Assembly (NCBI GenBank): GCA_964349995.1
Contig: CAYGIN010000001.1
Coordinates: 1-39,245, forward strand
Direction of reading: 5' to 3'
Origin: an uncultured Candidatus Saccharibacteria bacterium
Lineage (GTDB): Bacteria; Patescibacteriota; Minisyncoccia; Phycocordibacterales; SBAW01
DNA length: 39,245 bases
Part shown: positions 4,379-24,998 of the stretch, in pieces
Numbering within the stretch: position 1 is the first letter of the stretch
How the letters are laid out: each line of letters starts with the position of its first letter
Translations under genes and position numbers: made by a program
The notes under the pieces: model-generated
Seen by the model: only the letters and a program-made list of their open reading frames with translations
What the model was told of the DNA's origin: nothing
Database searches by the model: none

Positions 4379-4386
4379 AGTATACT
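4379..4386 (+). promoter_or_regulatory. AGTATACT -10 box 8 nt upstream of ATG 4395 (leaderless-type promoter of cassette A)
   Basis: The same octamer and spacing occur at 7229, 16393 and 19928. Confidence 0.5.
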
Positions 4387-4394
4387 AAAGAAGC

Positions 4395-4589
4395 ATGAAA
4401 CACTTGCCTAAACTGTTGGCCCCACTGTCCTTGGTAAGCATATTTGGCTTGTCCGGTATCGCATGGCTCCATACACCGTCTTTACATCAAACGATGTGTG
4501 CAGTTGCAGACAATACTGCTGGAGCGTCTGAACAGCAAAAACATACCGAAGATAGAATATATTTTGTAGGGTGTGGCGGACTTTTCTAA
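4395..4589 (+). CDS. Small exported precursor peptide A (64 aa) ending ...RIYFVGCGGLF
   Basis: It has a Lys-rich n-region (MKHLPK), a hydrophobic core (LLAPLSLVSIFGLSGIAWL), and a polar body with two Cys. A paralog at 16409..16600 keeps the same C-terminal motif using different synonymous codons. Confidence 0.7.
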   Translation: MKHLPKLLAPLSLVSIFGLSGIAWLHTPSLHQTMCAVADNTAGASEQQKHTEDRIYFVGCGGLF

Positions 4590-4602
4590 CAGCACGGCCT
4601 TT

Positions 4603-5052
4603 ATGACACATGAAGACCCAAAACAATGGCGCATTGTGCCGACTGTGTATGAGGAGGGAGAGTATGCCGCTCCAATCTCGCACGTTCAAAAAAGTGATTT
4701 TGTGTGGGATGCGCTCGGCCGCTCGCTTGATGCACACAAGCCCCAAGGATTGGGAATTATGCTTTCCTTCGCGTGGCAGCTGCACTTTTATGCATACAAA
4801 GAAGCAAGTGCTCGCGGGATAGTGACCGCGGTTGCAATGCCGACCAATGTCAGCGCGCTGTCGGGGCTTATGAAGTCGGTCCCCATTGAGGCGGTTCTGA
4901 CCACAGAGGAAGGGGCACACGCATTCGTACAAGATCTGCAAGAGGCGGGGATGCTCGAGAGAATAAAGGTGTGGTTTATTGTGTCTCCAAAAGAACGCCC
5001 CAGCTCGTTTGTGGCGCCCGTTGGTACTACCGTGCACGACCTACTTCCATGA
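4603..5052 (+). CDS. Cassette A partner protein (149 aa from ATG 4603; the ORF opens at GTG 4573), function unknown
   Basis: It is a paralog of 16625..17062. There is no signal peptide. The stop TGA 5050-5052 overlaps ATG 5049 of the ligase. By eye, the central part (GIMLSFAWQLHFYAYKEASARGIVTAVAMPTN...PIEAVLTTEEG) weakly resembles the N-terminal subdomain of long ANL enzymes. Confidence 0.75.
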   Translation: MTHEDPKQWRIVPTVYEEGEYAAPISHVQKSDFVWDALGRSLDAHKPQGLGIMLSFAWQLHFYAYKEASARGIVTAVAMPTNVSALSGLMKSVPIEAVLTTEEGAHAFVQDLQEAGMLERIKVWFIVSPKERPSSFVAPVGTTVHDLLP

Positions 5053-6332
5053 ATACTCAGCACACCTTACTGCAGAAAGCGCTCGATTTTGCGCTCGGGA
5101 GTCCGCACTCGGATTTTTATCGCCGTAAATTTGGCCCCTCGTATAAAGAGTATTTCGATAAGCCTATACAAGAAATACCTTTTCTCGTGCGCACAGAGAT
5201 AGACGCCGTTCCTGTATTTGAACGGACGTTTGTTCCGCGGGATATGGTGCGTTTTATACGCTCCACATCGGGTTCCACCGGAAAGAGTGTTATCGGTTTT
5301 CCAATGCTTGAGGAAGGACTGTATCAAAATTTTCTAGGCTTAATTGGATATCAAAAAGAGTCAGGGCAATTGTCGCGCTATTTTGAACCTTATTTTTCGC
5401 AGATGAATATTCGCTCAATGCTTTTGTTTTCTGCGGGTTCGTTTGTGCATGAAGTACGTGTACGAGAAATGGAAGGAAGACAATGTATTGCAGGAGAGTT
5501 TGCACAGCCAAAACTGACAGCAGAGCTTGCAAAGGAAGCGAACATCGAAGCCATTGTTGGTAATCCAAGCGGGCTCGTAGATTTTGCGCCGCACTTAAAA
5601 GCTATAGAAGGAGCAGATACTGTGCGGCTTATTATATCGGTGGGAGAACGTCCTACCTCGTTGCAGTTTGCCGCGCTACAAACTATTTTTCCCAATGCGA
5701 AAATTGCATTGCAGTATGGGCTGACTGAATCGCAAGGATACGTCGGGTACACCTGTCCAGAGAAATTGAGTATAGATCCCAAAGCACTTCATGTAGCCGA
5801 CGGCACATTGTTTATAGAACTTATTGATCCTGACACTGAAGTCGTGCTTCCGCTTTTACCAGGGACTGAGGGTGAACTCGTTGTTACCACGCACGAACCG
5901 CAAGGGTTTCCTCTTATCCGCTATAGAACTGGAGATTTTGTGCGGATCCGCGGGGAATCCTGCGCCTGTGAGGGGAGCCCTCTGTTATTTGAATGTATGG
6001 GGAGGCTTACGCTCGACAGATTGCGGGTACCACATGGGATGCTCACTATCGCTGCAATTGAACAGGCGGTGTCGAGTCTTCCCGGTGTGCAGGAGTTTGA
6101 GGCGAAATGGAATGCCGAGGGTCCGTTGCCGAGGTTGGAAATTTCTCTGTATATGGACAGTGTGAAAAACGGAGAGGGTATATCTATAGATGAACTTGCT
6201 TCACGTATCCGTATTGCACCGAAGGCATCCTATCAAACAATTGTAGAGGAAGGGCGAGTGTTGCCGCTTGAAGTGGTTACTAAACCCTTAGAGCAGTGGG
6301 TCGGATGGAAAAAGAAAAAACGGCTGCACTAA
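5049..6332 (+). CDS. PaaK/F390-synthetase-like adenylate-forming (ANL superfamily) ligase, cassette A (427 aa)
   Basis: ANL motifs are present: STSGSTGKS (P-loop/A3), YGLTESQG (A5), YRTGD (A8), CACEGSP...GRLTLDR, and a C-terminal Lys cluster KKKKR. The N-terminus is laid out as in phenylacetate-CoA ligases (DFYRRKFG...IPFLVRTEI). I chose ATG 5049 (ATGA overlap, conserved in cassette B) over the longer ORF starting at 4971. Confidence 0.85.
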   Translation: MNTQHTLLQKALDFALGSPHSDFYRRKFGPSYKEYFDKPIQEIPFLVRTEIDAVPVFERTFVPRDMVRFIRSTSGSTGKSVIGFPMLEEGLYQNFLGLIGYQKESGQLSRYFEPYFSQMNIRSMLLFSAGSFVHEVRVREMEGRQCIAGEFAQPKLTAELAKEANIEAIVGNPSGLVDFAPHLKAIEGADTVRLIISVGERPTSLQFAALQTIFPNAKIALQYGLTESQGYVGYTCPEKLSIDPKALHVADGTLFIELIDPDTEVVLPLLPGTEGELVVTTHEPQGFPLIRYRTGDFVRIRGESCACEGSPLLFECMGRLTLDRLRVPHGMLTIAAIEQAVSSLPGVQEFEAKWNAEGPLPRLEISLYMDSVKNGEGISIDELASRIRIAPKASYQTIVEEGRVLPLEVVTKPLEQWVGWKKKKRLH

Positions 6333-6785
6333 TTAGTTTGAGAGTGGAAGGAGATCTCCTGCGATTACAGTGCTTGCTTCAAGACGGCTGTGTTCCGCGG
6401 AGTTTGTAAATAGAATAAATATTGTCTCGCCTACAACAAAATCCCATTGTTCAATGGGGAGTATGGAAACACCGCCGATAACTCCGTCTGCACCAGTAGT
6501 TGCACGGACTCGTGTCATGGTCGCATTTGGGGTTATCCAAACTTTTGCGGTTGCTACTCGCCCTGTGCCGGTATCATACGAGAAGGTCATCCATCCTTCG
6601 ACACTATTATTTTCGACCAACGTTCCGGTCTTTCGAATATCTTTGACGATGCTCAGTGTATTTGTTCTTGCTTTTTGATAGTTCGGGTCTTCCGCACCGC
6701 TCGCTTGCATAATGTTAAGTGTGACACTGCCCGCAAGCAACGCAGCAAGAACAAAGAGGAGCGTCAAAGTATTTTTTTGGTTCAT
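6333..6785 (-). CDS. Exported hypothetical protein (150 aa)
   Basis: It has an N-terminal signal or anchor (TLTLLFVLAALLAGSVTL) and a beta-rich body. Its stop abuts the ligase stop with 0 nt between them (convergent). Confidence 0.7.
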   Translation of the reverse strand: MNQKNTLTLLFVLAALLAGSVTLNIMQASGAEDPNYQKARTNTLSIVKDIRKTGTLVENNSVEGWMTFSYDTGTGRVATAKVWITPNATMTRVRATTGADGVIGGVSILPIEQWDFVVGETIFILFTNSAEHSRLEASTVIAGDLLPLSN

Positions 6786-6791: not shown

Positions 6792-7220
6792 TTATTGGGT
6801 TGGGGATGTAAATATCATTATAGCGTAGGGGACTGTTTGTTCCGCGCTGAGCCACAGGATTACGCGTATCCGAAGACCTTCCGTAAGCGTTTTTGCCGGT
6901 ACTGTGTGCACGAGACGCGAATCGACAATAGTGCCTTGCTGGTCCGGCATCAACATCCGCACCAACATTGCAGTGTCTTTGTCGTAGTGGACGAGAATAG
7001 TTTGAGCGGGTTTGAGTGGGTCCTCGTCCTGCGTGAGCAAAAATGAGTCTGCAGAAAGGCTGCTGACAGTGCCACCGACAGGCATAGTTATATTTTTTCT
7101 GGCTCCAATTTGGAGTGCCTCAATATTCCTGCCCGATAAGGCCAATACTCCCATGGTCGATGCGAGTGCGACTCCTACACACACACCGCACACTACCGCC
7201 AGTGCCGAAGAGGCATTCAT
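6792..7220 (-). CDS. Membrane-anchored hypothetical protein (142 aa)
   Basis: The N-terminus is hydrophobic (ALAVVCGVCVGVALASTMGVLAL). The start codon lies 8 nt from the palindromic AGTATACT box. It is the first gene of a two-gene minus-strand operon. Confidence 0.7.
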   Translation of the reverse strand: MNASSALAVVCGVCVGVALASTMGVLALSGRNIEALQIGARKNITMPVGGTVSSLSADSFLLTQDEDPLKPAQTILVHYDKDTAMLVRMLMPDQQGTIVDSRLVHTVPAKTLTEGLRIRVILWLSAEQTVPYAIMIFTSPTQ

Positions 7221-7228
7221 ACTGTTCC

Positions 7229-7236
7229 AGTATACT
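7229..7236. promoter_or_regulatory. Palindromic AGTATACT box centred in the 23-bp gap between divergent starts 7220 (-) and 7244 (+)
   Basis: AGTATACT is its own reverse complement, so it reads TATACT on both strands. It lies 8 nt and 7 nt from the two ATGs. Confidence 0.55.
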
Positions 7237-7243
7237 AGTATGT

Positions 7244-8698
7244 ATGCGTACCGTTCGTACTTTCATGTCGGCTCTAGCCCTTTTGTTCGCATGTGTGGTG
7301 TACATGTTTTTACCGCTTGAAACTCAAGACGCTGGAGGCGCGCTTCTTTCGTGTACTGTAATAGGAATAGTATTGCTCGACGCATTTCTGCGGGGGTATG
7401 GGCCGAGTCCGCGTCACTGGCATATGTCACAGTGGCTTGTCGTAGCTTTCGTACTCTCTCTTTTTGTCTCGACACTGTTTTCAAAGAACTATACCCATGC
7501 ACTTTGGGGGTTTTCATTCGATATGACATCAGCGCTATTTCTTTCGTTTGTATTCTGTCTACCGCTTATTGTGGGGACACTCCCTGCCGCGACGCGGAGG
7601 ATATTGTTTATAAGTGCATGTCTGTCGCTCGTACTCCTTGTAGCCTTTCCGCTCATACGATCGGAAGTATATGTTCGACCCTCGCATGAAGCCACTCTAG
7701 GGATTGAGTCTGCATCGTACGCAGAAAATGGAACCCGGGCTCTACTTGTTGGACTCGGACCCAATTCGTTTGTGTATGCATGGCAGATGTATAAACCCGC
7801 GGCGGTGCTTACGACACCATTTTGGGCCGATGATTTTCCCGTTGGAAGTAGTGTCGTTACAACGCTCACTATTGAGACAGGAGTTATAAGCGTCCTCCTG
7901 CTTTTTTTGATATACCTGTCTGCCTGCGCAGAGGAGTTATGGAAAAGTATTGCGGAACAGGTACCACGTGGGAGGAAGTTTTTTTCCAGTCTGTCTGTTG
8001 CGCTTGTGCTTGGGTCTTTTGTTGCTCTTGTATACGCAGAGCCGTCCGCTCCGCTCGTGTTGGTGTCGGGCATACTTCTATCCTCATTCCGGTTTCAAAC
8101 GGAACCGCGGTTGCTCCTGAGTATGTGGGTTCGCCGGGCGGCTATTTTTTTAAGCGTAATTTTTATATGCGTTGTCGTATATATAGCAGTTGCAATTGCA
8201 TTTTATTTTTATGCATTTTCACAGGTGCGCGCGGGGAATGTGCCGTTGGCTCGCAGTACGGGCGAGTACTCATATCAACTCTACAAAAATCCCCAGACCG
8301 CGCGGTTTCTCTCGCAAGTATTCCGGTCACTCGGGCATGAGCTGGGCAGGATACACGCATCGAAAAACACCACACAAGACGCATTCCACACTGCGTCCGC
8401 ATATGCGCGGGCAGCTACACAGTACGAGTCGCAGAACGGACAGAGCTGGAAATTACTCGGCATCAGCCTTGCAGAAGAATTGTCTCTCCAAAAAAACCAA
8501 ATCTTTTCTACTGAAGGTAAAAAAGCTTTTGATACGGCGGTGAAGCGAATTCCTAATGACCCGTCGATTCTCTTTTTTGAAGCGCAACTCTACATACTTG
8601 CGGGGGATCAGGTGGGAGCAAAGAACTTGCTCGAAAAAGCTCTTTTGATGAAGCCTGACTATGTGGAGGCGAGTGACTTGCATGAGGCGATTCAGTAA
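7244..8698 (+). CDS. Polytopic membrane protein with a C-terminal TPR-like region (possibly O-antigen-ligase/polymerase-like)
   Basis: There are many hydrophobic helices and then helical repeats at the C-terminus (...NDPSILFFEAQLYILAGDQVGAKNLLEKALLMKPDYVEA). I chose ATG 7244 over GTG 7115, because the longer ORF would overlap the minus-strand gene. The family assignment is an eyeball guess. Confidence 0.75.
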   Translation: MRTVRTFMSALALLFACVVYMFLPLETQDAGGALLSCTVIGIVLLDAFLRGYGPSPRHWHMSQWLVVAFVLSLFVSTLFSKNYTHALWGFSFDMTSALFLSFVFCLPLIVGTLPAATRRILFISACLSLVLLVAFPLIRSEVYVRPSHEATLGIESASYAENGTRALLVGLGPNSFVYAWQMYKPAAVLTTPFWADDFPVGSSVVTTLTIETGVISVLLLFLIYLSACAEELWKSIAEQVPRGRKFFSSLSVALVLGSFVALVYAEPSAPLVLVSGILLSSFRFQTEPRLLLSMWVRRAAIFLSVIFICVVVYIAVAIAFYFYAFSQVRAGNVPLARSTGEYSYQLYKNPQTARFLSQVFRSLGHELGRIHASKNTTQDAFHTASAYARAATQYESQNGQSWKLLGISLAEELSLQKNQIFSTEGKKAFDTAVKRIPNDPSILFFEAQLYILAGDQVGAKNLLEKALLMKPDYVEASDLHEAIQ

Positions 8699-10214
8699 AC
8701 ATATTTTTTGCGCGTGCTTGTTTTTACTCGTATTCATTTTTTTTGGAGTACAAGACTTTTCTCGTGCGCCGATAAAATATAATGTAGTTCTCATAAGTAT
8801 TGACAGTTTGCGCGCAGACCATATGAGTCTCTACGGATACGATCGCACTACAACGCCAGCTATTGATGCATTTGCTAAGCGTGCTGTGGTATTTAATTCT
8901 TTTTTTTCAACGAGCATGATTACTCCAATCAGCGAGGTCAGCGTTCATACAGGTATGTATCCATTTTCAAGTGGAGTTGTTAATTTTGAATCAACCCTAC
9001 CCCCCACAGTTCAGACATTAGCCGAAGTGCTTAAGGAGCAGGGGTGGCAGACCGCTTCGTTTGGCTCATCTGTGGAGTTTAATATGGGAGGCATACGTAC
9101 CTCTCTTTCTAGGGGATTCGACACATATATAGGAAACAACAATACACTAAATGCTCCGTTGCCGTGGTACGGTCGGGGCGGGTCACGTGTGCTGGAAGCT
9201 TTGACGTGGACAAAAAACGCAGTAAAAAATAAGCAGCCCTTCTTTCTATGGCTTCACGTTGGTTCAGTTCACTGGCCATACGGGCAGGATGAGCCCCCAC
9301 ACTTTACTGACCCTTCATATGACGGACGTATGAGACTCGGTTCAATTCCAGAAAAAGGCGTTCCACAACTGAGGCCCCTTTTTGTAGAGAGATATGGGAG
9401 CATATGGCAAGGCAAGGAATACAGGCCAAACAGAGGAGTGATTTCCGCAGACGCAAGCAATGACTTGGCCTATATTACAGACCGCTATGATGACGGCATT
9501 GTGAAGACTGATCGAGAATTAAAGCCAATCCTTGATTTTCTTTCTGAAAGCGAGATTGAAGAGAATACAATCGTTATTATTCAATCGGAACATGGCGAGG
9601 GGCTGGGAGAACGTGGGTATGTTGCTCATTATGATATTTCAGACACCGAAACACGAACTCCTTTGATTCTAAAGATTCCTTCGGTTGATCCGCAACATGT
9701 GGATGCCCTTGCGTCCGGGGTAGATGTTTTTCCGACAGTTCTCTCCGCGCTCGGACTTCATGCGCCACACGTCGACGGGGTTGATTTTATGCCATTTATT
9801 ACCGGAGCATCAGCGACTCCTCCGCGAGAAGAAGTATATTTGACGAGATCACCTCTGTGGGAGCGTATTCTGGTGCAAGCTGAGCCGTGGCTTCAGCCTT
9901 TTGTTGACCAAGATACCGTACACCATTTCCATGACACCGCGGTGCGCACGAATGAGTGGAAGCTTGTGCACCGCAGTGCCCGGGAAGTCGAGAGAATATA
10001 CTCTTGGTACGGGTACCTCACCAGCGGTACCATTGTACGGCCGGAGTACGAACTGTATCATGTGTCGGTAGACCCCTATGAGAGAGCTGATGTGCATGCT
10101 ATATATCCGGAGGTAGTAAAAGAATTGCAGTCAAAATTAGATGCCTTTGAGATGGCGACTGAAGGAACACAAGAGTTGCCGGCATCTGGGGGGCTGCTCC
10201 AGCCATATTTTTAA
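8682..10214 (+). CDS. Sulfatase-family (alkaline phosphatase superfamily) enzyme, N-terminally anchored, LtaS/phosphotransferase-like
   Basis: Motifs: ISIDSLRADH, HVGSVHWPY, SEHGEGLGERG. Thr occupies the position of the Cys/Ser nucleophile (MITPISEVSVHTGMYP) and there is no CxPxR. An alternative start is ATG 8661. Confidence 0.8.
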   Translation: MRRFSKHIFCACLFLLVFIFFGVQDFSRAPIKYNVVLISIDSLRADHMSLYGYDRTTTPAIDAFAKRAVVFNSFFSTSMITPISEVSVHTGMYPFSSGVVNFESTLPPTVQTLAEVLKEQGWQTASFGSSVEFNMGGIRTSLSRGFDTYIGNNNTLNAPLPWYGRGGSRVLEALTWTKNAVKNKQPFFLWLHVGSVHWPYGQDEPPHFTDPSYDGRMRLGSIPEKGVPQLRPLFVERYGSIWQGKEYRPNRGVISADASNDLAYITDRYDDGIVKTDRELKPILDFLSESEIEENTIVIIQSEHGEGLGERGYVAHYDISDTETRTPLILKIPSVDPQHVDALASGVDVFPTVLSALGLHAPHVDGVDFMPFITGASATPPREEVYLTRSPLWERILVQAEPWLQPFVDQDTVHHFHDTAVRTNEWKLVHRSAREVERIYSWYGYLTSGTIVRPEYELYHVSVDPYERADVHAIYPEVVKELQSKLDAFEMATEGTQELPASGGLLQPYF

Positions 10215-16400: not shown

Positions 16401-16408
16401 CTAGGTAC

Positions 16409-16600: not shown

Positions 16601-16624
16601 ATCTGATTAGTGTACACACGAGCA

Positions 16625-17062
16625 ATGCATGATGGCCACATAGTAACGCGGGTGGTTCCTGAGGATTGGACTGATGCGTCCTCGCGCATACTTTTTATGC
16701 CAAATGACGCTTCTTGGAACACGCTTGGACGTATGCTTGATGAGACACATCCTAAATGTATTGGGATTCTGCTTCCCCTCGTATCTCAATTGCATAGATA
16801 TGTGTATAGGGAAGCAAGAGCGCGTGGCATCACCGTTGCACTTGTTCCACCCTCAAACGCGATGGTACTCACAGGTCTTATGGAAGAGGTTCCTATTGAA
16901 GCAGTTGTCGCAGACGAACATGGCGCTCGTCTATTTGCTGAAGATCTTCAACACATGGGGCTTCTCTCGCGTGTCCGCGGTTGGCTCATTATTTCTCCTA
17001 AAGGAAAGGAGTCATCCTACGCACCTCAGTTTGGGGTTGTGTTTCGAGACTCATTTCTATGA
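16625..17062 (+). CDS. Cassette B partner protein (145 aa from ATG 16625; the ORF opens at GTG 16610)
   Basis: It is a paralog of 4603..5052, for example WNTLGRMLDETHPK vs WDALGRSLDAHKPQ, and VPIEAVVADEHGARLFAEDLQHMGLL vs VPIEAVLTTEEGAHAFVQDLQEAGML. TGA 17060-17062 overlaps ATG 17059. Confidence 0.75.
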   Translation: MHDGHIVTRVVPEDWTDASSRILFMPNDASWNTLGRMLDETHPKCIGILLPLVSQLHRYVYREARARGITVALVPPSNAMVLTGLMEEVPIEAVVADEHGARLFAEDLQHMGLLSRVRGWLIISPKGKESSYAPQFGVVFRDSFL

Positions 17063-18344: not shown

Positions 18345-19919
18345 TTATTGAAGTATTGTGCGTCGCGCTTTCAATTCAGTAATAAGGTCAGAAAAAGCTT
18401 TATGACGTGCGACGATATCCGCAGCAAATAGCTGGCGCTCATTTAAAAATCCTGCTTGGTGTACGAGAGTCGTTGAGAGCGGTCGGATGGGAATTTCTGA
18501 ATCCTTAAACGGGTCAATACTGTATATGCGTTTACTCAGCAGGGAGTGTCCACTTGGAAACACCGTCTCATTATCAAGCGCATATAACTGCGACAGTCCA
18601 CCGCGCGTAATAAGAAAAACACTCGGAGGGGAGGGGTTTAACCTGTATGGAATGTAGCTTCCTATTTGCAAGTCATCAAAATACCCAAGTACTAAATCAA
18701 GGCTTGAACTTTTTGCCCGAGCTTCAGTTACCCGCTCTGCAAGTTTTATCACCTCCTCTCTCCCAAGGCTTTGTATGAGGGAGGTAGGGTCTGTTTTCCG
18801 TATTGTAAATATGGCAGCGTTAAGATATGCGTTGTACTCATGTTCTTGAAGCAACAACGGTCGCATAGAGAATTTCTCGGAAGCAGTTTGAAGATCACGG
18901 AGGGTTCTTGTGGAGAAACCTGTCGGCGTACTCGGCGCGCTGAGTAGCGTCTTGGACAGATTTGCCATGCCGAGAATCCTCCCCACATCCATACCGAAAT
19001 CTGGGCACATATATGCATTAAATGGCTGGAATGTAAGAGTTACGCCTGACGCATGCAAAAGCTTGTAGAATGGGTGAGTGCTTGATGCGGTGTTTTCAAC
19101 ATAGAGCCGGTTGAGATACACGACGTGTGCCCCAGGCACTTCAGAGAGCCGCGATGGTTGCACTGTAAGCGCAAAATATGCTGGCGTATCATTAAAACAC
19201 GAAGAATTTTCGATTACGAATATAGGAGAGGTTTCAATTGAAGGGTATATGACAGAAAGTGGATATGTATTCTTTTGAACAACTTCCGTTTCGTATGTTC
19301 TGTTGCTGGTTTGATATAGTTCGCCGAAATTAAATTGTAGCTGTAGTAGTGATTCGCATGAACGTGCGTCTCCCTCAAAACAGGCAAACCTCCGGTCCTC
19401 TTTCTTCAATGCAGTAGCGTTGGCGCGCAGTGCTTCTGTAAGTATTGTTTGAACAGAGTCTCCGGTATTTTGGCCACTGAAGTATTGATACACGTTTGGA
19501 TTTTTATCCAAAGAAAGTACTGCGTCAGCCCCATGAAGGTCGTGTTCATGTGCCAGAAGGAGCGCATATAGTTTTTCATGGTACGTTCTTGCATGAGCAG
19601 GAGAAGGGTCTGCAATAAGTACTCGACGCGCTTCTTCAGCTTCGGGAAGCGTCCTTAAAAAACGGAAAGGGTAGATAGCTTCTTTTGCCTCCTTGTTTTC
19701 AGGGAACATGGGTACGGCTGCTTTTGCAGATAGTTCGAAAGCATCCAGAGCTTTTCGAAACGCACGCATATCGGTCCCAGGGAACGCGTATAGTGGGTCA
19801 AGTAATTGACGGTTGGCGTATTCCACAGCAGCTCTCTGAGGGTCAGACATAGTATGTTGCAATAGAACCGCAACAATACCCATTGCACACAACAGAATTA
19901 CAACTTTTAGTGTCCGCAT
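18345..19919 (-). CDS. N-terminally anchored hypothetical protein (524 aa), paralog of 14781..16385
   Basis: It has a single N-terminal TM helix. Its stop lies 2 nt from the ligase B stop (convergent), and its start lies 8 nt from the palindromic box at 19928. Confidence 0.85.
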   Translation of the reverse strand: MRTLKVVILLCAMGIVAVLLQHTMSDPQRAAVEYANRQLLDPLYAFPGTDMRAFRKALDAFELSAKAAVPMFPENKEAKEAIYPFRFLRTLPEAEEARRVLIADPSPAHARTYHEKLYALLLAHEHDLHGADAVLSLDKNPNVYQYFSGQNTGDSVQTILTEALRANATALKKEDRRFACFEGDARSCESLLQLQFNFGELYQTSNRTYETEVVQKNTYPLSVIYPSIETSPIFVIENSSCFNDTPAYFALTVQPSRLSEVPGAHVVYLNRLYVENTASSTHPFYKLLHASGVTLTFQPFNAYMCPDFGMDVGRILGMANLSKTLLSAPSTPTGFSTRTLRDLQTASEKFSMRPLLLQEHEYNAYLNAAIFTIRKTDPTSLIQSLGREEVIKLAERVTEARAKSSSLDLVLGYFDDLQIGSYIPYRLNPSPPSVFLITRGGLSQLYALDNETVFPSGHSLLSKRIYSIDPFKDSEIPIRPLSTTLVHQAGFLNERQLFAADIVARHKAFSDLITELKARRTILQ

Positions 19920-19927
19920 TACTTTAA

Positions 19928-19935
19928 AGTATACT
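19928..19935. promoter_or_regulatory. Palindromic AGTATACT box centred in the 23-bp gap between divergent starts 19919 (-) and 19943 (+)
   Basis: It lies 8 nt and 7 nt from the two ATGs. Confidence 0.55.
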
Positions 19936-19942
19936 AAATTGC

Positions 19943-21190
19943 ATGCAAACGCCTCTATGGGTTTCTAAATTCATTCCACATTTGGTCGTGGGGTTTCTTT
20001 TTTTTGGCCTAGTTATGTACGGTATATACGGAGGAATTCCAGCAGAATACCCAGAACTTTCAAAAACATATTGGAATAGTGCAACCTTTGAACAACTTAG
20101 ACACAATTTTACTGACATAGCAGATGAGAAGGGCGCACTATACGCGTTTGAGATACTGCGCCGTGCACCACTGCCTCCACAAACAGATGTCCACCTGCTT
20201 GGGCATGTTATTGGGGACAAGTTATATAAAGAGTATGGAGAAGATGCGATCCAATTTTGTACGAGCGAATTTAGGAATGCTTGTTCACATACAGTCGTTG
20301 TTGGGCTCTTGCTCGACTACGGACCCAGCGCGCTCGACGATATTGGAGAGTCGTGTAAAAAAGCCCCCGGCGGCATCGGCGCGTACACGATGTGCTTTCA
20401 TGGGTTGGGGCACGGCGTACTTGCGTATGAACAGTATGATGTAGAAAAAACTATCGCATTGTGCAAAAAAACTGGGACTGCAGAGTATCATAATGAAGAG
20501 TACGCGCAGTGTGTAGGCGGAGCGATTATGGAAGCAATTTCGGGGGGCGGGCATGACAGGGTGGCGTGGGAGAAGGCTCGACCTCTCTATCTCAACACTC
20601 GGGACCCGCTTTCGCCCTGCAACCGGAGCTTTATGCCAGACGAGGTTCGCAGTTTTTGCTACATATATATTACTCCCCATTTAGTCGAGGCAGCTGGAGG
20701 TGACATGAACCATCCGGACCCCGCAGTATTTCCAAAAGCCTTTTCATTTTGCAGGGCGCTCCCTCAATCTGACAGAAACAGAGAGGTGTGTATGAACGGT
20801 TTTGGGAAAGAGTTTGTCGGATGGGCGAGACAAAGCGACGGACGCTCCATCACGACGCTGACTGATCAAGAAATGGAACTGAGCTCCTCATGGTGTGCAC
20901 TTTCTGGCACCGCAGAGGACACGCGGTATTGTCTCCAGGGAATACAATCGTATATTTATTGGGGAGGGGAAAATGACCCTCATTCGTCAGTCCGCTTTTG
21001 TTCACTGCTGAGCAAACAAAGCAAGGAAGCTGTGGCGATTTGTAATGCGGATTTAGCGCGACTTATTGCAAAATATGTTCCTGACACCAATACACGGAGC
21101 GCAACCTGCGCGTTATTGCCGGCGGATGTACAACACGAGTGTTTGACGTATGAATTACTATGGAACGGCCAACTCGACCTCTTACACTGA
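19943..21190 (+). CDS. Cys/His-rich repeat protein, family member 2 (415 aa)
   Basis: It has a TM anchor, HLLGHVIGDK, MCFHGLGHGVLAY, and about seven C-x(7-15)-C-x-x-G units. Confidence 0.85.
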   Translation: MQTPLWVSKFIPHLVVGFLFFGLVMYGIYGGIPAEYPELSKTYWNSATFEQLRHNFTDIADEKGALYAFEILRRAPLPPQTDVHLLGHVIGDKLYKEYGEDAIQFCTSEFRNACSHTVVVGLLLDYGPSALDDIGESCKKAPGGIGAYTMCFHGLGHGVLAYEQYDVEKTIALCKKTGTAEYHNEEYAQCVGGAIMEAISGGGHDRVAWEKARPLYLNTRDPLSPCNRSFMPDEVRSFCYIYITPHLVEAAGGDMNHPDPAVFPKAFSFCRALPQSDRNREVCMNGFGKEFVGWARQSDGRSITTLTDQEMELSSSWCALSGTAEDTRYCLQGIQSYIYWGGENDPHSSVRFCSLLSKQSKEAVAICNADLARLIAKYVPDTNTRSATCALLPADVQHECLTYELLWNGQLDLLH

Positions 21191-21200
21191 ATATATACGT

Positions 21201-22274
21201 ATGTTTCATATGAGCCTACATATACAAAAAAAATACAGCATTGGCCTGTTGTGCGGAGTGGTTGTCGTACTTGGTGGAATGTTTGTGTACTCCCACTTTG
21301 TATCCGCGTCAGTGCCGGTGTTTAACTTGAATTCACGTGAGGGCCTTGCACAGGCGGAATTATTTTGGAATGAAGAAATCTCTCGTGTGGGAGGAGAAAA
21401 AGCGTACATGGAATTTTCGCGGGCCTATGCAAGTTCGACACCTCAATATCAACACACAGCCGCTCATATTTTTGGAGGGAGTTTATACACGAAGGTTGGA
21501 GTGTCCGGGCTTTCCGTGTGCGACGATTCTTTTTCATACGGTTGTTTCCACGAATTTCTTGCCCGCGCTATACAGGAGGAAGGACTCGGTGCTGTAAATA
21601 TGCTCAATGAAGGGTGTTTTCAGGCGCTTGGTCCCGGAAAGTCACTTTCCTGCGCGCACGGGCTTGGCCATGGAATCCAATCATATCTTGGGTATACGGA
21701 CGATGCATTGAGAAAGGGTCTTGAAATTTGCAAAACATTGCCGTATGCAGACCCAATAGGTGGCTGCCCGGGGGGATTATTTATGGAATACAACATGCGC
21801 ACCATGCACTCGTTTTCCGGTATGCCAATAAGAAGCGCTGATGTTGGGGGCATGCAACACCCTTGTGATATTCTCAAAAAAGAAGATAGGGCGGTTTGTT
21901 ATTATTGGCAACCGCAGTGGTGGATTCAGCTTTTTAAGAGTCAAGGAAAGGATGTCACCGATGTATTTGTTGAAGTAGGTCGCTTGTGTGGCAGTATAGC
22001 TGAAAACTTACATAAACAATGTTTTGAAGGTGTGGGAACGGTCGTCGGAATGTCAGTGAAATATGATGTTCCACAAACGATAGCCCTCTGTGACGTAGTG
22101 TCAGTGCGAGAAAATGAAAGAAGTTCCTGTAGGGTAAGCGCCGCGGGTTCTTTTTTTGGAGAGCTTTCTGCACGGAAGAATGCACCTCTTTTGTGTGTTG
22201 GACTTGTAGAACCTTGGTACACAACATGTGGTGCGGTTGCGGTGGGGAAAGGAGAAATCCCGTCTACTCGTTGA
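21201..22274 (+). CDS. Cys/His-rich repeat protein, family member 3
   Basis: It has a TM anchor and the motifs SCAHGLGHGIQSY and GCPGGLFMEY. I preferred start ATG 21201 (or 21210) over ATG 21150, because the shorter N-terminus matches the paralogs and avoids a 41-nt overlap. Confidence 0.8.
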   Translation: MFHMSLHIQKKYSIGLLCGVVVVLGGMFVYSHFVSASVPVFNLNSREGLAQAELFWNEEISRVGGEKAYMEFSRAYASSTPQYQHTAAHIFGGSLYTKVGVSGLSVCDDSFSYGCFHEFLARAIQEEGLGAVNMLNEGCFQALGPGKSLSCAHGLGHGIQSYLGYTDDALRKGLEICKTLPYADPIGGCPGGLFMEYNMRTMHSFSGMPIRSADVGGMQHPCDILKKEDRAVCYYWQPQWWIQLFKSQGKDVTDVFVEVGRLCGSIAENLHKQCFEGVGTVVGMSVKYDVPQTIALCDVVSVRENERSSCRVSAAGSFFGELSARKNAPLLCVGLVEPWYTTCGAVAVGKGEIPSTR

Positions 22275-22283
22275 GTTACTATT

Positions 22284-23507
22284 ATGAAACAAGAATATAC
22301 AAAAAATAAATTATGGACGCACGCTACACTCCTTTTTCTTTGTATTGCCCTCGTATTTTTTCTCGTTGTTAGTGTAAGTCCCGCGCTGTCTCATACGGTA
22401 GCACGCCTCACCGCCAAGTTTTTTGTGATGTATTGTGCAGGACAGAGTGACAAAGCCGCATGTTATGAAGACAATGTGCCTCGCTTGCTCTATATAGCCT
22501 CTGTGGAGAATGTTTTTGGGGCGGTGCGTGAAATACAAAAACAAGATACATCATACCGTTTTTGTCACGTGCTTGGACATCAGATTGGTGTTGTTGAAGT
22601 TAGAAAGGATCCAATGTATTGGATGGATATTATGCATAAAAACCCCCCTGATGGTTTGTGTTCAAACGGCTACATCCACGGTGTTATTGTACAGAGATTT
22701 AGCCAATCAGTACTTTCGCCTGAACAAATTGACGCAATTGTTCCTGACCTTTCGCGCGCGTGTGAGGCATCGGCAGGGTGGAACCCAAGTGGACTTGATA
22801 AGGGGATGTGTTATCACGGCATGGGCCATGTCTTGACGCATATGACCGGCGCAGATATGCCGAGTGCGGTTTCGTATTGCAAGGAGATTTCAATTCATGG
22901 CATAGAAGACTACAGCCAGACCTGTATTTCAGGGGTGTTTATGCAGATATTTCAGCCGCTTGAGCCAGAAGACTATGCACTCATCGCGCATCTGCCGGTC
23001 AAACCGACAAAAGAAACACTCGCATCGTTTTGCGGTGTGTACGATACAGAGGAAGAACGGAGCGCTTGTTTTGGGGAGGGGTGGCCTCTCTTCCATGAAG
23101 AATTAAAAACAGCCGAAGGAATAAAAACATTTTGCACGACAAGCAATGTGGCCTCGACGCAGAAAAATTGTTTTATGACAGTGCTTTCCATAGGCGCGCG
23201 CGGGGCTTTGTCGGATCCTGAAAGACAAGAGACGATTTGTAGCACATTGCCTTCAGCGATCGGCAGGCAGTGTCTCGGCATTCTTGCCGTGGCATTCATC
23301 GAAGAAGACAGGACACAGGTTGAAAGTGCCACTGCTGTATGCGGCCGTGCGCCAGACACCTCTAAGGATTACTGTTACGAGTACCTGCTTGCACGGTCGG
23401 ACTTCACATTTGGCACGGACCTGCGAGCACGAGATGCTTTATGTAAAGCATTTCCTGATTCATGGCGTGTGCGTTGCGAGGCGGGGGAACGTCCGGAGAT
23501 ACGCTAA
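22284..23507 (+). CDS. Cys/His-rich repeat protein, family member 4 (407 aa)
   Basis: It is closest to member 1. Motifs: FCHVLGHQIG, LCSNGYIHG, MCYHGMGHVLTHM, TCISGVFMQIFQP. Confidence 0.85.
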   Translation: MKQEYTKNKLWTHATLLFLCIALVFFLVVSVSPALSHTVARLTAKFFVMYCAGQSDKAACYEDNVPRLLYIASVENVFGAVREIQKQDTSYRFCHVLGHQIGVVEVRKDPMYWMDIMHKNPPDGLCSNGYIHGVIVQRFSQSVLSPEQIDAIVPDLSRACEASAGWNPSGLDKGMCYHGMGHVLTHMTGADMPSAVSYCKEISIHGIEDYSQTCISGVFMQIFQPLEPEDYALIAHLPVKPTKETLASFCGVYDTEEERSACFGEGWPLFHEELKTAEGIKTFCTTSNVASTQKNCFMTVLSIGARGALSDPERQETICSTLPSAIGRQCLGILAVAFIEEDRTQVESATAVCGRAPDTSKDYCYEYLLARSDFTFGTDLRARDALCKAFPDSWRVRCEAGERPEIR

Positions 23508-23517
23508 TTATTGTAGT

Positions 23518-24039
23518 ATGTTTACTATGAAAACATTTCGAGCTTTGTGCATATACACAGCATTGTGCGTACCGCTTATATTGTCTGCCCACGGCACTGG
23601 CCGGTCCGTCGAGAAACAAGTAGGCGATTACCTTTTGGATATTGGGTATAACACCGAGACTATCGTTACAAGCAAGCCGGTGTATTTTGATTTCAAACTG
23701 TACCAACGCGGACCATCTCCAGGGAGTGCTCCTTTTGACGATGTGTGGGTACGTGTAGCAGAAGGCACAACAACATTGTTTGCGAGCGGTATTGCGTACA
23801 TGTCTTCAGGGGAGACAGGCATGATATACACGTTCGACCGCGCAGGGACCTATACAATGTCCGTTCGTTATGAGCGTGGAGAAACAGCGCTCGCGGAAAC
23901 AACCTTTGCGCTGGATGTCGTTCCGGAAACTACTACATCGTCTTCCTTTTTATACCTCAAACTTCTTATAGGAGCCGTCCTTGCGTGCGGAGCGATACTT
24001 CTTGCATATAAGCATATACGAGCGCGTGGTATCTTATAG
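23518..24039 (+). CDS. Small exported beta-rich protein with a C-terminal TM anchor (173 aa)
   Basis: The signal peptide is MFTMKTFRALCIYTALCVPLILSA, and the predicted mature end starts HGTG. An Ig-like-looking body (~130 aa) is followed by LLIGAVLACGAILLAY KHIRARG. I chose start ATG 23518, not the longer ORF from 23284 that overlaps the previous gene. Confidence 0.75.
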   Translation: MFTMKTFRALCIYTALCVPLILSAHGTGRSVEKQVGDYLLDIGYNTETIVTSKPVYFDFKLYQRGPSPGSAPFDDVWVRVAEGTTTLFASGIAYMSSGETGMIYTFDRAGTYTMSVRYERGETALAETTFALDVVPETTTSSSFLYLKLLIGAVLACGAILLAYKHIRARGIL

Positions 24040-24041
24040 GT

Positions 24042-24998
24042 ATGCGTTTGTGGAGGTTTTTCAAGTACAATAATGCGGTTCCCATCGTCCTCTCCCTCCT
24101 CCTCCTTTCGTTTGGGACGACACTTGCTGCAAGTCCTGAGATTCGTTCCGAGGTTGCGGCGAGTGTGTTTTCATCACAGACACGAGTCCTTTCGGTCGAC
24201 AATACTTACATAGCGAATAAAGATCTCTCCTCATATACACCGCGCGCAATTATCGCCGGAGTTTCTGAAGACCCTGAATTTTACTATGTCAGGTATTCGT
24301 TTAACACTATTGATATAAAAAATTCTGTTTGGCAGGATGTAACAAAAGACGAACTCATTAAAGTTCAAAAGACAGCATTGCGGGGCGGGGACCTAGGACT
24401 GTATGTCACGCGCGAACTGCGACAACGCATTGACCGTGAACTAGATATGCTGCGCCAAACCCAGCAAATAGAAAAAGTGCACGTCTCGCAGGAAGTTATT
24501 GCAACAGTCTACGGTGGGCTCATCGGTAAGTTTCTTGACGACACAACAGAGACACTTCCAGGATATGTGCCGGTGGTTACTCCGCCCGCAGCCCCTCCGT
24601 CAAATGATTCAGGAACAGGTAGTCCGCAACCATCATCCTCGGGTGATGTTGCACCACCCATTCAGGGAACCGGCACGCCTCCAACAATCCAAATCCTGGG
24701 CAACAATCCGAGTCGGATTGATATAGGTGTTACATATTCGGACCTTGGCATTGTAGTGACGGACTCCCTCGGGCATGACCTTGGCTACCAGATCTTTTTT
24801 GATGGCGTAAAAACCATGGAAGTCCAGCTTGATACGCGTGTTGCAGGTACACACACCATAAAATATGTTGCGGTGGACAGCGATGGCAATACAGCAGAAG
24901 CAACGAGGACTGTTATTGTAGGAACTCCTCCCGTGGTGTCAGAAAATGCTTCATCAACAGAAGCAACTGCGAGTTCGTCGGAGGATACTGCTCTCTAA
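24042..24998 (+). CDS. Exported protein with a C-terminal DUF5011/Ig-like domain
   Basis: It has a signal or anchor and a Pro-rich linker, then PPTIQILGNNPSRIDIGVTYSDLGIVVTDSLGHDL...GTHTIKYVAVDSDGNTAEATRTVIVG. That pattern is typical of DUF5011-type Ig domains. Confidence 0.75.
   Translation: MRLWRFFKYNNAVPIVLSLLLLSFGTTLAASPEIRSEVAASVFSSQTRVLSVDNTYIANKDLSSYTPRAIIAGVSEDPEFYYVRYSFNTIDIKNSVWQDVTKDELIKVQKTALRGGDLGLYVTRELRQRIDRELDMLRQTQQIEKVHVSQEVIATVYGGLIGKFLDDTTETLPGYVPVVTPPAAPPSNDSGTGSPQPSSSGDVAPPIQGTGTPPTIQILGNNPSRIDIGVTYSDLGIVVTDSLGHDLGYQIFFDGVKTMEVQLDTRVAGTHTIKYVAVDSDGNTAEATRTVIVGTPPVVSENASSTEATASSSEDTAL

Follow-up and report, generated by a model that had tools for sequence, protein, structure and literature searches.

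A modular cell-surface gene cluster beside gap in a Candidatus Adlerbacteria genome is probably old and vertically inherited

What kind of locus is the run of 22 genes at positions 4379–24998 of the window (the whole 39,245-nt stretch of DNA analysed), and has it been recently acquired, recently expanded or inherited from an older ancestor? The original prediction described it as an accessory envelope locus that had expanded in situ. The genes are packed tightly, with stops and starts overlapping, and are bounded by a 1305-aa giant protein (G00; 456..4373, + strand) and gap (GAPDH; 25030..26067, + strand), which opens the conserved right flank and has its own TATACT-N8-ATG start. The window begins at a contig end, and the left side was covered as far as the giant protein. 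This fibre-like surface protein (one TM, residues 100–118) adjoins the island on the left, outside the variable block; every relative examined carries G00-like genes at this site, in varying number and length, and the C-terminal ~360 aa of G00 share 54–75% identity with proteins of genome G034 and a Kaiserbacteria genome. The block is a genuine cluster of cell-surface genes from an ultra-small bacterium of the CPR, Candidatus Adlerbacteria (Paceibacteria), and the majority of the protein families that it encodes are previously unstudied.

Export or anchoring was scored as a Kyte-Doolittle 19-mer average of at least 1.68 inside the first 35 residues of curated starts, a hydropathy heuristic in which signal peptides and anchors were told apart by eye. 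The envelope-locus reading was borne out: 18 of the 22 genes encode an N-terminal hydrophobic segment and, as predicted, the exceptions are two partner proteins and two ligases, while such a segment is found in only about 5 of 16 downstream genes. With a crude automatic ORF set, 13 of 18 ORFs scored in the island vs 166 of 591 (28%) elsewhere (binomial P = 1.3e-4). The paralog sets that had been claimed were all recovered by blastp, with identities of 30% for the peptides G01/G14 (both ending in CGG[LI]F), 47% for the partners G02/G15, 42% for the ligases G03/G16, 26% for the sulfatase-fold proteins G07/G08, 63–67% within the tandem triad G09–G11 and 28% for the 530-aa pair G13/G17. The four Cys/His proteins are connected at E values of 1e-11 to 5e-54 (G12 vs G20, 31% identity), and no paralogy was detectable by blastp between the small exported proteins G04 and G05.

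Among the relatives, genome G033 (Candidatus Adlerbacteria) carries all 22 genes in the same order adjoining gap. At this site G034 and G035 have a smaller set, retaining the triad, the Cys/His trio and cassette B and lacking cassette A, both sulfatase-fold genes, G12 and G13. The block was detected neither at the site nor elsewhere in the draft assemblies of the two closest relatives searched, G031 and G032, where giant fibre genes and an IS200-like transposase occupy its place. It is also missing from the site in G015 and from the 12 kb examined of G007, and searches of both whole assemblies detected none of the tested families except a ~780-aa polytopic TPR protein. The right flank, from gap to a GT2 gene, is collinear in G015, G007, G031, G033, G034 and G035, so that the gap-side flank is conserved while the island varies, and the locus is accessory rather than invariant across the lineage. 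The flank tree, built from ten genes all linked to the locus, was ((((G000,G031)100,G033)97,G015)100,(G034,G035)100), in which G000 is the present genome. Together with the distribution of the block, this tree suggests a single ancestral cluster that was lost at least twice.

Could the block be a horizontally transferred island, recently acquired and now fixed beside gap? Its patchiness would fit, as no copy was detected in the closest relatives and it is rare across the phylum (the Cys/His family occurs in 15 of 401 genomes of an even sample), as would the transposase at the empty site of G031 and G032 and a mildly deviant tetranucleotide profile; the island value (0.0117) is the highest among 20.6-kb windows (others 0.0075 +/- 0.0019, n = 26 overlapping windows). 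This deviation, however, fits the amino-acid bias of membrane proteins, and GC content is 0.473 in the island vs 0.471 in the genome. No integrase or transposase was found in the window by domain search, boundary repeats are absent, and the only tRNA (tRNA-Thr, 36774–36849) lies 11.8 kb downstream, as the original prediction had noted in arguing against a recent mobile element. The shared gene order and site in G033, the reduced set in G034 and G035 and promoters of the genome's own type also argue against this account. Furthermore, conservation is lower for the island proteins than for those of the flanks (mean identity between G000 and G033, 62% vs 78%) and, in agreement with the flank tree, G033 is a closer match than G034/G035 for most island genes of G000. 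Recent acquisition is thus highly improbable, although the island may have been of foreign origin long ago, and some horizontal spread of the Cys/His family among Patescibacteria may have occurred.

Six paralog sets within 20 kb could instead mean that local tandem duplication recently enlarged the cluster in this lineage, and the triad, Cys/His, 530-aa, partner and ligase families have no copies elsewhere in the genome. Stretches of 134, 74, 47 and 30 bp are identical in DNA sequence between triad genes, which would be expected of young copies but also fits gene conversion between old ones, and triads in fixed order occur in 21 of 79 loci anchored on G18 homologs, from many lineages. Triad excepted, paralog identities are low (25–47%), each paralog has its own same-order ortholog in G033 and most have one in G034 and G035; the triad and the G18/G20 members also have one-to-one counterparts in a Kaiserbacteria genome. 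In the ligase tree, which groups sequences by position and not by genome, clades A and B are sisters (support 98–100; the G000 copy of ligase B forms a long branch) and appear to be old, having split earlier than these species. Recent growth is accordingly very unlikely, and the predicted in situ expansion did not hold as a lineage-specific event: the collinear orthologs and the early ligase split indicate that the duplications are old and that the cluster has mainly been losing parts.

We therefore favour, with reasonable though incomplete confidence, an old, vertically inherited but dispensable, modular cell-surface cluster of this Candidatus Adlerbacteria genome. Its site, with a hypervariable giant fibre gene on one side and a core block of gap, pentose-phosphate and translation-factor genes on the other, would be prone to turnover, and some lineages would lose modules or the entire block there and gain fibre genes in its place. 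Such losses suggest conditionally useful surface equipment and not core envelope biogenesis.

Transcription bears on whether the genes act together. The box AGTATACT at 4379..4386, 8 nt ahead of the G01 ATG and kept at the same place in G033, is a putative -10 element of a leaderless transcript. The same box occupies the 23-bp divergent gaps G05/G06 (7221..7243; box at 7229–7236, kept in G034 and G035), G13/G14 (16386..16408; box at 16393–16400, kept in G033) and G17/G18 (19920..19942; box at 19928–19935, kept in G033, G034 and G035), and in orthologous gaps the boxes are conserved while the remaining bases have diverged. The predicted 23-bp bidirectional design is therefore exact in all three gaps and centred on AGTATACT, but it is not specific to the island, as the same kind of start precedes at least 54 ORFs, including gap; it reads as the general leaderless start of the genome, TATACT-N6-8-ATG, present in two back-to-back copies. 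Throughout the genome, all 8 occurrences of AGTATACT lie beside an ORF start, and 60 of 226 TATACT hexamers have an ATG 6–8 nt downstream. Seven transcription units with leaderless mRNAs would thus arise from four TATACT -10 sites, three of them back-to-back palindromes.

It was also considered that all 22 genes build one machine, such as a single surface appendage with its assembly and regulatory parts. The tight packing and the inheritance of the whole block in G033 favour this, as does a Kaiserbacteria contig carrying in one cluster the giant protein, G22, the triad, five Cys/His genes, G21, a 530-aa gene, a peptide and a ligase. The 79 G18-anchored loci, many of which end early at contig ends, nearly all contain multiple Cys/His copies, with G21 in 32, giant-like genes in 24, gap in 14 and the 530-aa family in 12; the triad is missing from 58 and the ligase from 70 (present in 9), counts limited in many cases by those contig ends. 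In addition, G034 and G035 keep the triad, trio and cassette B without cassette A and the sulfatase-fold genes, the cassette is present in other contexts in G014 and G003, and the genes probably form seven separate transcription units. A single machine is consequently unlikely, and the old cluster would instead combine four modules, for peptides, envelope modification, extracytoplasmic binding and adhesion.

The peptide module would consist of two cassettes, each with an exported precursor of ~63 aa, a cytosolic partner of ~150 aa and a PaaK-like adenylating ligase. In cassette A, the precursor G01 (4395..4589, +; 64 aa, ending ...RIYFVGCGGLF) shares 56% identity with its G033 ortholog. The cytosolic partner G02 (4603..5052, +; 149 aa) belongs to a family that is rare, with 19 clusters in a set of 1.84 billion representative proteins, and has no relative in Pfam, NCBIfam or PDB. 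The adenylate-forming ligase G03 (5049..6332, +; 427 aa), whose start overlaps the G02 stop (ATGA), is 78% identical to its G033 ortholog; its AMP-binding match (29.1 bits, cut-off 29.9) and its matches to the PaaK, FlxY and DVU_1553 models are sub-threshold. Cassette B contains the precursor G14 (16409..16600, +; 63 aa, ending ...RVYQVWCGGIF), with orthologs in G033, G034 and G035 that end in WCGGV[FY], the partner G15 (16610..17062, +; 150 aa, 51% identity to the G033 ortholog) and the ligase G16 (17059..18342, +; 427 aa), again with an ATGA overlap. The precursors appear to share an invariant C-G-G-hydrophobic-aromatic terminus, and fold, conserved residues and gene neighbourhood suggest a role in peptide activation, in which the C-terminal carboxylate would be activated in an ATP-dependent manner prior to Sec export.

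Two anchored proteins, G13 (14781..16385, - strand; 534 aa, anchored at the N-terminus, 44% identity to the G033 ortholog) and G17 (18345..19919, - strand; 524 aa, 40% identity to the G033, G034 and G035 orthologs), belong to a family that evolves fast and is linked with the peptide cassette; a search of 5.8 billion proteins gave only 4 matches to G17. In G003, a G13 homolog has the peptide gene on one side and the partner-ligase genes on the other, all on one strand. Peptides ending in CGGxx are encoded at two island sites only in the present genome and 9 times in the 1.27 Mb of the 79 loci, each time with a ligase or 530-aa gene in the locus, and the ~530-aa proteins are the likely outside-facing partner of the cassettes.

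The envelope-modifying group would include a sulfatase-fold pair, a short polytopic TPR paralog and two small exported proteins. G07 (8661..10214, +) and G08 (10220..11629, +) are N-terminally anchored ectoenzymes of the alkaline phosphatase superfamily, and the predicted sulfatase family was confirmed for both by Pfam Sulfatase matches at E values of about 1e-43 (1.8e-43 and 1e-42). No C/S-x-P-x-R motif was seen on inspection of the G07 region ...MITPISEVSVHTG. In G08, the residues T-V-P-S-F align with this motif of solved sulfatases, placing Thr at the nucleophile position, where sulfatases have the formylglycine Cys; both enzymes are read as lacking the formylglycine motif and carrying Thr at this position, and may be of the phosphoryl-transfer type. 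G06 (7244..8698, +) is polytopic as predicted, with about 9 TM segments and a TPR-like C-terminal tail in its sequence, but its TPR match is sub-threshold. Most relatives searched encode a ~780-aa protein (homologs of ~750–820 aa) of which G06 is a short and divergent paralog; a second copy in the same genome (C12:3362-5671) passes the TPR cut-offs. G04 (6333..6785, -; 150 aa) and G05 (6792..7220, -; 142 aa) are small exported or anchored proteins with orthologs in G033 (59% and 54% identity) and G034/G035 (40% and 24%); among the relatives G04 has orthologs in these genomes only, with one more match in the 79 loci.

Four anchored Cys/His α-solenoids and an anchored Ig-like protein would form the extracytoplasmic binding module. 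G12 (13574..14806, +; 410 aa, 18 Cys) is helical and 66% identical to its G033 ortholog, and G18, G19 and G20 (415, 357 and 407 aa) lie in tandem at 19943..23507 (+), as recognized by blastp. More than 1175 homologs of G18 exist, every one of them hypothetical, and it has no Pfam domain; 6 His and 13 Cys are invariant across 29 sequences, and the AF2 model (pLDDT 90.8, 20 helices) gave no PDB match with a TM-score above 0.29. Orthologous G18–G20 trios occur in G033, G034, G035 and G014, and the five Cys/His members of the Kaiserbacteria locus include orthologs of G18 and G20. G21 (23518..24039, +), which adjoins the G18-like genes in the 32 loci, has a signal peptide, an Ig-like β-sandwich with weak filamin and PKD matches, and a C-terminal TM anchor. 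The proposed His-1 assignment agrees with 21 orthologs, in which the A-H at the predicted cleavage site, E32, D41 and W77 are invariant, so that the predicted mature N-terminus is the invariant His. The Cys pattern suggests that the solenoids are stapled by disulfides, and the module may bind metal, judging by its folds, its conserved residues and the genes around it.

The adhesion module would comprise the upstream giant fibre, a secreted triad (G09, G10 and G11; 197, 191 and 254 aa; 11685..13570, +) and the surface protein G22. G22 (24042..24998, +) is anchored and has a Pro-rich linker and a Bact_surface_Ig-like domain (PF16403, 44.9 bits, cut-off 27; E 1.2e-11), formerly DUF5011, the name under which it had been predicted. 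Its full-length orthologs adjoin gap in G033, G034 and G035, and genes near gap in G032 and G015 match its Ig-like domain alone. The triad, which occurs in fixed order in G033, G034, G035 and the Kaiserbacteria genome, would be an ancient and fixed set, kept partly identical through gene conversion; it has more than 2070 homologs, none with a name. Fold, conserved residues and gene neighbourhood point to adhesion, and the cluster may have a role in host attachment, a function on which only the triad fold bears, for attachment and signalling alike. The AF2 model for the triad has a β-sandwich core (pLDDT > 90) that resembles phage tail-fibre tips, with fold matches to a minor tail protein of Arthrobacter phage Mufasa8 (E 8.3e-7) and the tail fibre of phage P-SSM2 (7e-5), as well as to tailspike and pyocin fibre tips.

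The first 39 kb of contig C1 of the source genome G000 (610 kb, 65 contigs, 47% GC) carry 22 genes (G01 to G22, 4379–24998) between the gene for a giant fibre-like protein of 1305 aa (G00, 456–4373) and gap (GAPDH, 25030–26067), with prfA (release factor 1) located at 34074–35075. Start codons were curated using alignments of paralogs, giving starts at 5049 for G03 (in an ATGA overlap with G02, as in G15/G16), 7244 for G06 and 23518 for G21. The paralog sets originally claimed for this island were all recovered by blastp, except that the small exported proteins G04 and G05 had no detectable relationship. The two peptide cassettes, A (G01 peptide, G02 partner, G03 ligase) and B (G14, G15 and G16, respectively), share 30% identity between peptides, both of which end in CGG[LI]F, 47% between partners and 42% between ligases. 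Identities were 26% for the sulfatase-fold enzymes G07 and G08, 28% for the 530-aa proteins G13 and G17, and 63–67% among the tandem triad G09 to G11, and the four Cys/His proteins (G12, G18, G19 and G20) were linked at E values of 1e-11 to 5e-54. As predicted, the partners and ligases were the exceptions to export or anchoring: 18 of the 22 proteins have a hydrophobic N-terminal segment, which was missing only from these four, compared with about 5 of 16 downstream genes. A crude automatic ORF set gave hydrophobic starts in 13 of 18 island ORFs versus 28% elsewhere (P = 1.3e-4). The DUF5011 assignment of G22 also held, its residues 216–293 matching Bact_surface_Ig-like (PF16403, former DUF5011) in Pfam with 44.9 bits against a gathering cut-off of 27. 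Our literature searches found no specific description of such a cluster.

A DNA search with the island gave no match in 30 drawn relatives; their divergence being too great for such a search, the comparison relied on proteins and synteny. In 20 drawn relatives, the 20 kb 5' of gap contained no counterpart of G01 to G21, only giant-protein and Ig-domain matches. With concatenated protein queries, which recovered all of G000's own copies but may miss weak matches, the triad, G04 and G05 had matches in none of the 30 relatives, the 530-aa family in one and the Cys/His family in three; the ligase had matches in 7 of 18 same-genus genomes, and a relative of G06 of about 780 aa was present in most of the 30. 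Five closer genomes were then reached through their prfA loci. In G033 (GAPDH 82% identical to that of G000), all 22 genes lie immediately 5' of gap with order and orientation kept and with protein identities of 34–78%. G034 and G035 (GAPDH 78–79%) have a reduced island lacking cassette A, both sulfatase-fold genes, G12 and G13. In the closest genomes, G031 and G032 (GAPDH 92%), the island was found neither at the site nor elsewhere in the assemblies, the exception among its families being a polytopic TPR protein of about 780 aa, and the gap site is occupied by two giant genes (2865 and 2162 aa) or one (4383 aa). Nor was the island found at the site in G015 (GAPDH 81–83%), or elsewhere in that assembly for the families searched, or in G007. 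The flank from gap to a GT2 gene is collinear in G031, G033, G034, G035, G015 and G007, so that a conserved gap-side flank borders an island that is whole, reduced or not found; the reading as an accessory, non-mobile envelope locus, shared by G000 with G033, G034 and G035 and not detected in G031, G032, G015 and G007, is upheld.

No integrase, recombinase or transposase domain was detected in the 22 island proteins or their neighbours, the window beginning at a contig end, and the only tRNA in the window (tRNA-Thr, at 36774), which is also the sole Rfam match in its whole length, is 11.8 kb downstream of the island; the absence of an integrase, a transposase or a flanking tRNA had been noted correctly. 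At the gap site of G031 and G032, an IS200-like Y1 (RAYT-type) transposase (PF01797, E 5.6e-10) is encoded 58–110 bp upstream of gap (G031:C1, G032:C17), with no homolog in G000. The GC content of the island (0.473) is that of the genome (0.471 ± 0.006), and its tetranucleotide profile is mildly deviant (distance 0.0117 versus 0.0075 ± 0.0019), the highest among 26 overlapping windows.

A maximum-likelihood tree of ten flank proteins (3056 columns, rooted with G013) had the topology ((((G000,G031)100,G033)97,G015)100,(G034,G035)100). Since the island is present in G000, G033 and G034/G035, it was, on this tree, present in their common ancestor, and at least two losses are required, in the G031/G032 line and in G015. 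Recent horizontal transfer was considered and rejected: mean protein identity between G000 and G033 is lower in the island (62%) than in the flanks (78%), and most island genes of G000 are nearer to those of G033 than to those of G034/G035, as in the flank tree. Together with the GC content, these values are as expected from inheritance at a faster evolutionary rate and speak against an import in recent times. Recent duplication fared no better. In G033, G034 and G035, a separate best ortholog exists for each triad member and for each of G18, G19 and G20, with their order kept; an ordered G18–G20 trio is also present in G014, and a Kaiserbacteria genome has an ordered triad and orthologs of G18 and G20. 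In the ligase tree, clades A and B are sister groups whose split is older than these species. The paralogs are thus old, and the proposed local expansion in situ is not sustained, as they are one-to-one orthologous among these genomes and the ligase clades are ancient. The triad genes, whose proteins are only 63–67% identical overall, share runs of 100% identical DNA of 134 bp (11835–11968 and 12403–12536), 74 bp (11841–11914, 12409–12482 and 13103–13176), 47 bp (12198–12244 and 12748–12794) and 30 bp (12135–12164 and 13373–13402), for which gene conversion between old copies is the best reading.

The same modules occur together farther afield. One cluster on the Kaiserbacteria contig contains the C-terminus of a giant protein (54% identity), a G22-like gene, the triad (50–57%), five Cys/His genes (50% for the ortholog of G18), one G21-like gene, one of the 530-aa type, a peptide ending in ...LTCGGIY and a ligase. 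The G18-like genes of many Patescibacteria lineages served as anchors for 79 loci, nearly all of which have multiple Cys/His genes; G21 was found in 32 of the 79, giant-like genes in 24, the triad in 21, gap in 14, the 530-aa family in 12, G22 in 10, the ligase in 9 and sulfatase-fold genes in 7. In an even sample of the phylum, the Cys/His family (E <= 1e-10) was present in only 15 of 401 genomes, G000 included. These locus counts and this rarity indicate that the block is a lineage-typical assembly of old modules, each patchily kept. We conclude that this surface cluster is old and modular and occupies a site prone to turnover, being whole in G000 and G033, trimmed in G034/G035 and not found in the sister lineage. 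Host attachment, metal handling or peptide signalling would be its putative function.

Three transcription units were predicted to start from one 23-bp bidirectional promoter design. Three divergent gaps are indeed each exactly 23 bp, with the palindrome AGTATACT at the centre, but the promoter itself is genome-general and not specific to the island. The AGTATACT octamer has 8 copies genome-wide, every one adjoining an ORF start, of which 4 are within the island, and a further back-to-back pair with a gap of 22 bp is present on contig C25. An ATG follows 6–8 nt 3' of 60 of the 226 TATACT hexamers in the genome, and 54 of these 60 ATGs open ORFs of at least 60 aa. TATACT-like boxes (TATACT, TATATT, TATAAT) are found at -13 or -14 of gap, fba and the gene for ribosomal protein L25, and Shine-Dalgarno-like motifs are nearly missing 5' of the 39 genes of the window. 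The boxes are kept in the orthologous gaps of G033, G034 and G035 amid diverged bases, which supports a function. TATACT-N6-8-ATG would then be a genome-wide leaderless start signal, serving at least 54 ORFs, rather than a signature of the island, and its grammar can improve the calling of gene starts in such genomes. In the island, seven transcription units (G01–G03, G05–G04, G06–G12, G13, G14–G16, G17 and G18–G22) would be expressed from four sites.

The 5' end of the giant gene has features of its own. An 88-nt direct repeat, 92% identical, occupies positions 145–232 and 402–489 (also 48–77 and 240–269) and spans the TATACT box, a GC-rich hairpin with TTTATTT after it, and codons 1–11 of G00; its upstream copy opens only a short dead-end frame. 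A repeat search on bases 1–700 gave only this duplicated 5' end, which resembles a remnant of recombination between paralogs of the giant fibre. Positions 420–455, located 3' of the TATACT box and 5' of the G00 ATG, can form a terminator-like hairpin (GGGCAGGTCGCC...GGCGATCTGCCC, then a T-run) that had no match in Rfam. Given the location of the hairpin, G00, unlike its neighbours, would have a structured leader of about 45 nt, possibly an attenuator.

Two of the flank genes deserve mention. A 186-aa tail-anchored Pro/Ala-rich protein (28039–28599), encoded between two transketolase halves, is 31% identical to its counterpart in G015, where its neighbours are 80–86% identical, and had no match in G007 and G002. 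The exported protein of 32398–33774, which combines a coiled coil with an SLT lytic-transglycosylase domain, is 73–87% identical in G031, G033 and G015 but only 37–39% in G034 and G035, so that it has been replaced or is fast-evolving in the latter lineage.

G07 and G08 have the sulfatase fold, scoring 149 and 147 bits with Pfam Sulfatase (PF00884; cut-off 25), but both lack the C/S-x-P-x-R motif: G08 has T-V-P-S-F aligned at this site of the solved sulfatases 4uph and 6pt6, and G07, by inspection, has I-T-P-I-S-E at the motif position. All NCBIfam scores of these proteins were far below the cut-offs. Because the formylglycine motif is replaced, sulfatase activity is unlikely, and G07 and G08 are more likely to be phosphoryl-transfer or hydrolase ectoenzymes. 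G06, described as a polytopic TPR protein, is homologous to a TPR-containing polytopic family (E 1e-8 to 1e-23 with proteins of 750–820 aa from most relatives), but its own TPR match is sub-threshold (17 bits); a paralog on contig C12 of the same genome passes (41.8 bits). G06 is a short paralog of the polytopic TPR protein of about 780 aa present in most relatives.

The triad family, whose genes lie about 7 kb downstream of the G00 gene, has more than 2070 homologs, none of them named, and no sequence-level match in PDB or Pfam. AF2 models residues 80–161 confidently as a beta-sandwich, whereas residues 47–76, the most conserved motif, were unmodelled in the monomer with low pLDDT, which is compatible with an oligomer interface. 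A fold search of BFVD gave 10 matches at E <= 0.001, the best being a minor tail protein of Arthrobacter phage Mufasa8 (E 8.3e-7); a tail-fibre-like protein of phage P-SSM2 was matched at E 7e-5, and tailspike and pyocin fibre tips in PDB were marginal (E 6e-3 to 4e-2). The idea of a domain shared with the C-terminus of G00 was dropped after hhalign of the triad profile gave a non-significant probability of 0.5%.

The Cys/His family, seen in Patescibacteria-type genomes only, has more than 1175 homologs, again none named, with six His and thirteen Cys invariant in the alignment. Its AF2 model (pLDDT 90.8) is a 20-helix solenoid after an N-terminal transmembrane (TM) helix; the family has no Pfam model and no match in a PDB sequence search, and the G18 fold had only generic helical-repeat matches in PDB (TM-score <= 0.29). 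In G21, a signal peptide is followed by an Ig-like beta-sandwich and a C-terminal TM anchor. Its description as a His-1 protein agrees with the conservation of His at the predicted mature N-terminus: at the predicted cleavage site, A24-H25, all of 21 orthologs have H25, with A24 at least 90% conserved among them, and the His was seen across all 31 orthologs collected. The matches of G21 were restricted to weak ones with filamin, PKD and Big-type Ig domains, and its profile retrieved nothing usable in a PDB sequence search. G21 may bind metal.

Precursors of the cassette type were found in at least 9 genomes, with a Sec-like N-terminus, a mid-chain Cys and the C-terminus [YFL]-x-[VIM]-x-C-G-G-[FILV]-[FYL]; that of G003 has a deviant end, ...CGDFVE. 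In a motif scan of 1.27 Mb of loci, precursors occurred only beside ligase or 530-aa genes, and in the source genome the motif is present only at the two island sites. The order in G003 (peptide, 530-aa gene, partner and ligase on one strand) ties the 530-aa family to the cassette. The 530-aa protein had only 4 matches in a large database, its family changing too quickly for the word index used. The ligases scored 29.1 (G03, just below the cut-off of 29.9) and 16.6 bits (G16) with AMP-binding, and E 1e-11 to 1e-26 with the PaaK, FlxY and DVU_1553 models, far below the equivalog cut-offs. The partner belongs to a rare family, with 19 clusters in 1.84 billion representative proteins and no detectable relative; its profile gave nothing meaningful against PDB and a probability of 2.6% (E 0.018) against the ligase with hhalign. 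Long-form partners (208–242 aa) have a C-x-C-G motif resembling the ligases' own, which may hint at an ANL subdomain supplied in trans. The single cassette of G034 has a partner gene (G034:C1:89808-90136) that matches as two fragments, one with a stop codon, and may be a pseudogene; its G035 counterpart is one continuous match. At locus L101 (G014:C31), a 321-aa ORF on the minus strand (4582–5547) between the peptide and partner genes resembles, by eye, a Bug/TctC-type periplasmic binding protein, odd in CPR, and could be a spurious opposite-strand ORF, an insertion or mis-binned sequence.

Evolution within the block is fastest in cassette B and the 530-aa genes (34–51% identity versus 78% in the flanks). 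The branch of the G000 ligase B (17059–18342) is about 2.6 times that of its G033 ortholog (0.71 versus 0.27 substitutions per site), which points to an accelerated change of cassette B in G000. An improbable reading is that cassette B and the flanking 530-aa proteins constitute a system for peptide signalling or recognition that is specific to the strain and would be the first of its kind in CPR. In this reading, the cytosolic PaaK-like ligase and its partner would activate the ...C-G-G-x-x end (e.g. by closing a thiolactone ring of five residues), after which the product would leave the cell to be sensed or docked by the 530-aa protein. The system would belong to a single dispensable "partner-interaction" kit, inherited along with adhesins of the fibre-tip type and a new multi-His module for metal binding outside the cytoplasm.

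CPR/Patescibacteria account for a large part of bacterial diversity and presumably spend their lives attached to other cells, and to our knowledge almost nothing is known of their surface equipment. The block gathers large nameless families, i.e. the fibre-tip triad (over 2000 homologs) and the multi-His solenoid (over 1100), with a rare peptide-ligase cassette; travelling together as an ancient cluster that species can lose, they lend themselves to structural and biochemical study. A comparison of sister genomes that have or lack the block is a natural experiment on the purpose of the kit, be it host range, a metal-poor niche or signalling.

Each module resembles a known system in part. The beta-sandwich core of G09 to G11 is like the tips of phage tail fibres and minor tail proteins, and fibre-type proteins that a bacterium rather than a phage would use recall the mosaic adhesive trimer (MAT) fibres that Bdellovibrio bacteriovorus reportedly has. 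The triad differs in that its tip domain is a free-standing, secreted and stalkless protein of about 190 aa, which always occurs as three ordered paralogs with no phage genes nearby. The cysteine-rich proteins of Helicobacter and the Sel1-like-repeat (SLR) proteins are disulfide-stapled alpha/alpha repeats; the Cys/His proteins are likewise exported or anchored, with a predicted all-helical solenoid of about 20 helices, and have many invariant Cys that could form disulfides. They differ in having six invariant His, in being multi-copy in nearly all loci and in lacking a sequence or fold match to SLR proteins, an SLR-fold protein ranking 13th (E 0.13) in the PDB fold search. G21 is like the copper-binding proteins of Bacillus of the YcnI (DUF1775) and CopC types in combining a beta-sandwich and an invariant, predicted His-1 with a signal peptide and a C-terminal TM anchor, but none of 21 members of its family matched the DUF1775 or CopC models. 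G07 and G08 are like type I sulfatases and LtaS/EptA in their full-length, outward-facing Pfam Sulfatase domain with an N-terminal anchor, and are set apart from type I (formylglycine) sulfatases by the lack of C/S-x-P-x-R and from the LtaS/EptA phosphotransferases, which have five TM helices, by a single one.

The cassettes are reminiscent of agr (AgrD/AgrB) and RiPPs in that the gene for a small ribosomal precursor, whose conserved Cys stands exactly four residues ahead of the C-terminus, adjoins genes for a putative dedicated modifying enzyme and for a membrane protein that evolves fast. Unlike agr, they encode neither an AgrB- nor an AgrC-like protein, the precursor begins with a Sec-type signal and lacks a C-terminal tail for cleavage, and the enzyme is a putative ANL/PaaK-like adenylating ligase with an extra partner of about 150 aa. 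As a whole, the block is comparable to the Mollicutes Vlp/Vsa loci, which are variable surface-protein loci or plasticity zones of reduced genomes, in that surface-protein genes are gained, lost and replaced between close relatives at a fixed chromosomal site. In contrast to those loci, phase-variation repeats and a site-specific invertase were not seen at the island, which is a conserved set of ancient families rather than a single expanding one.
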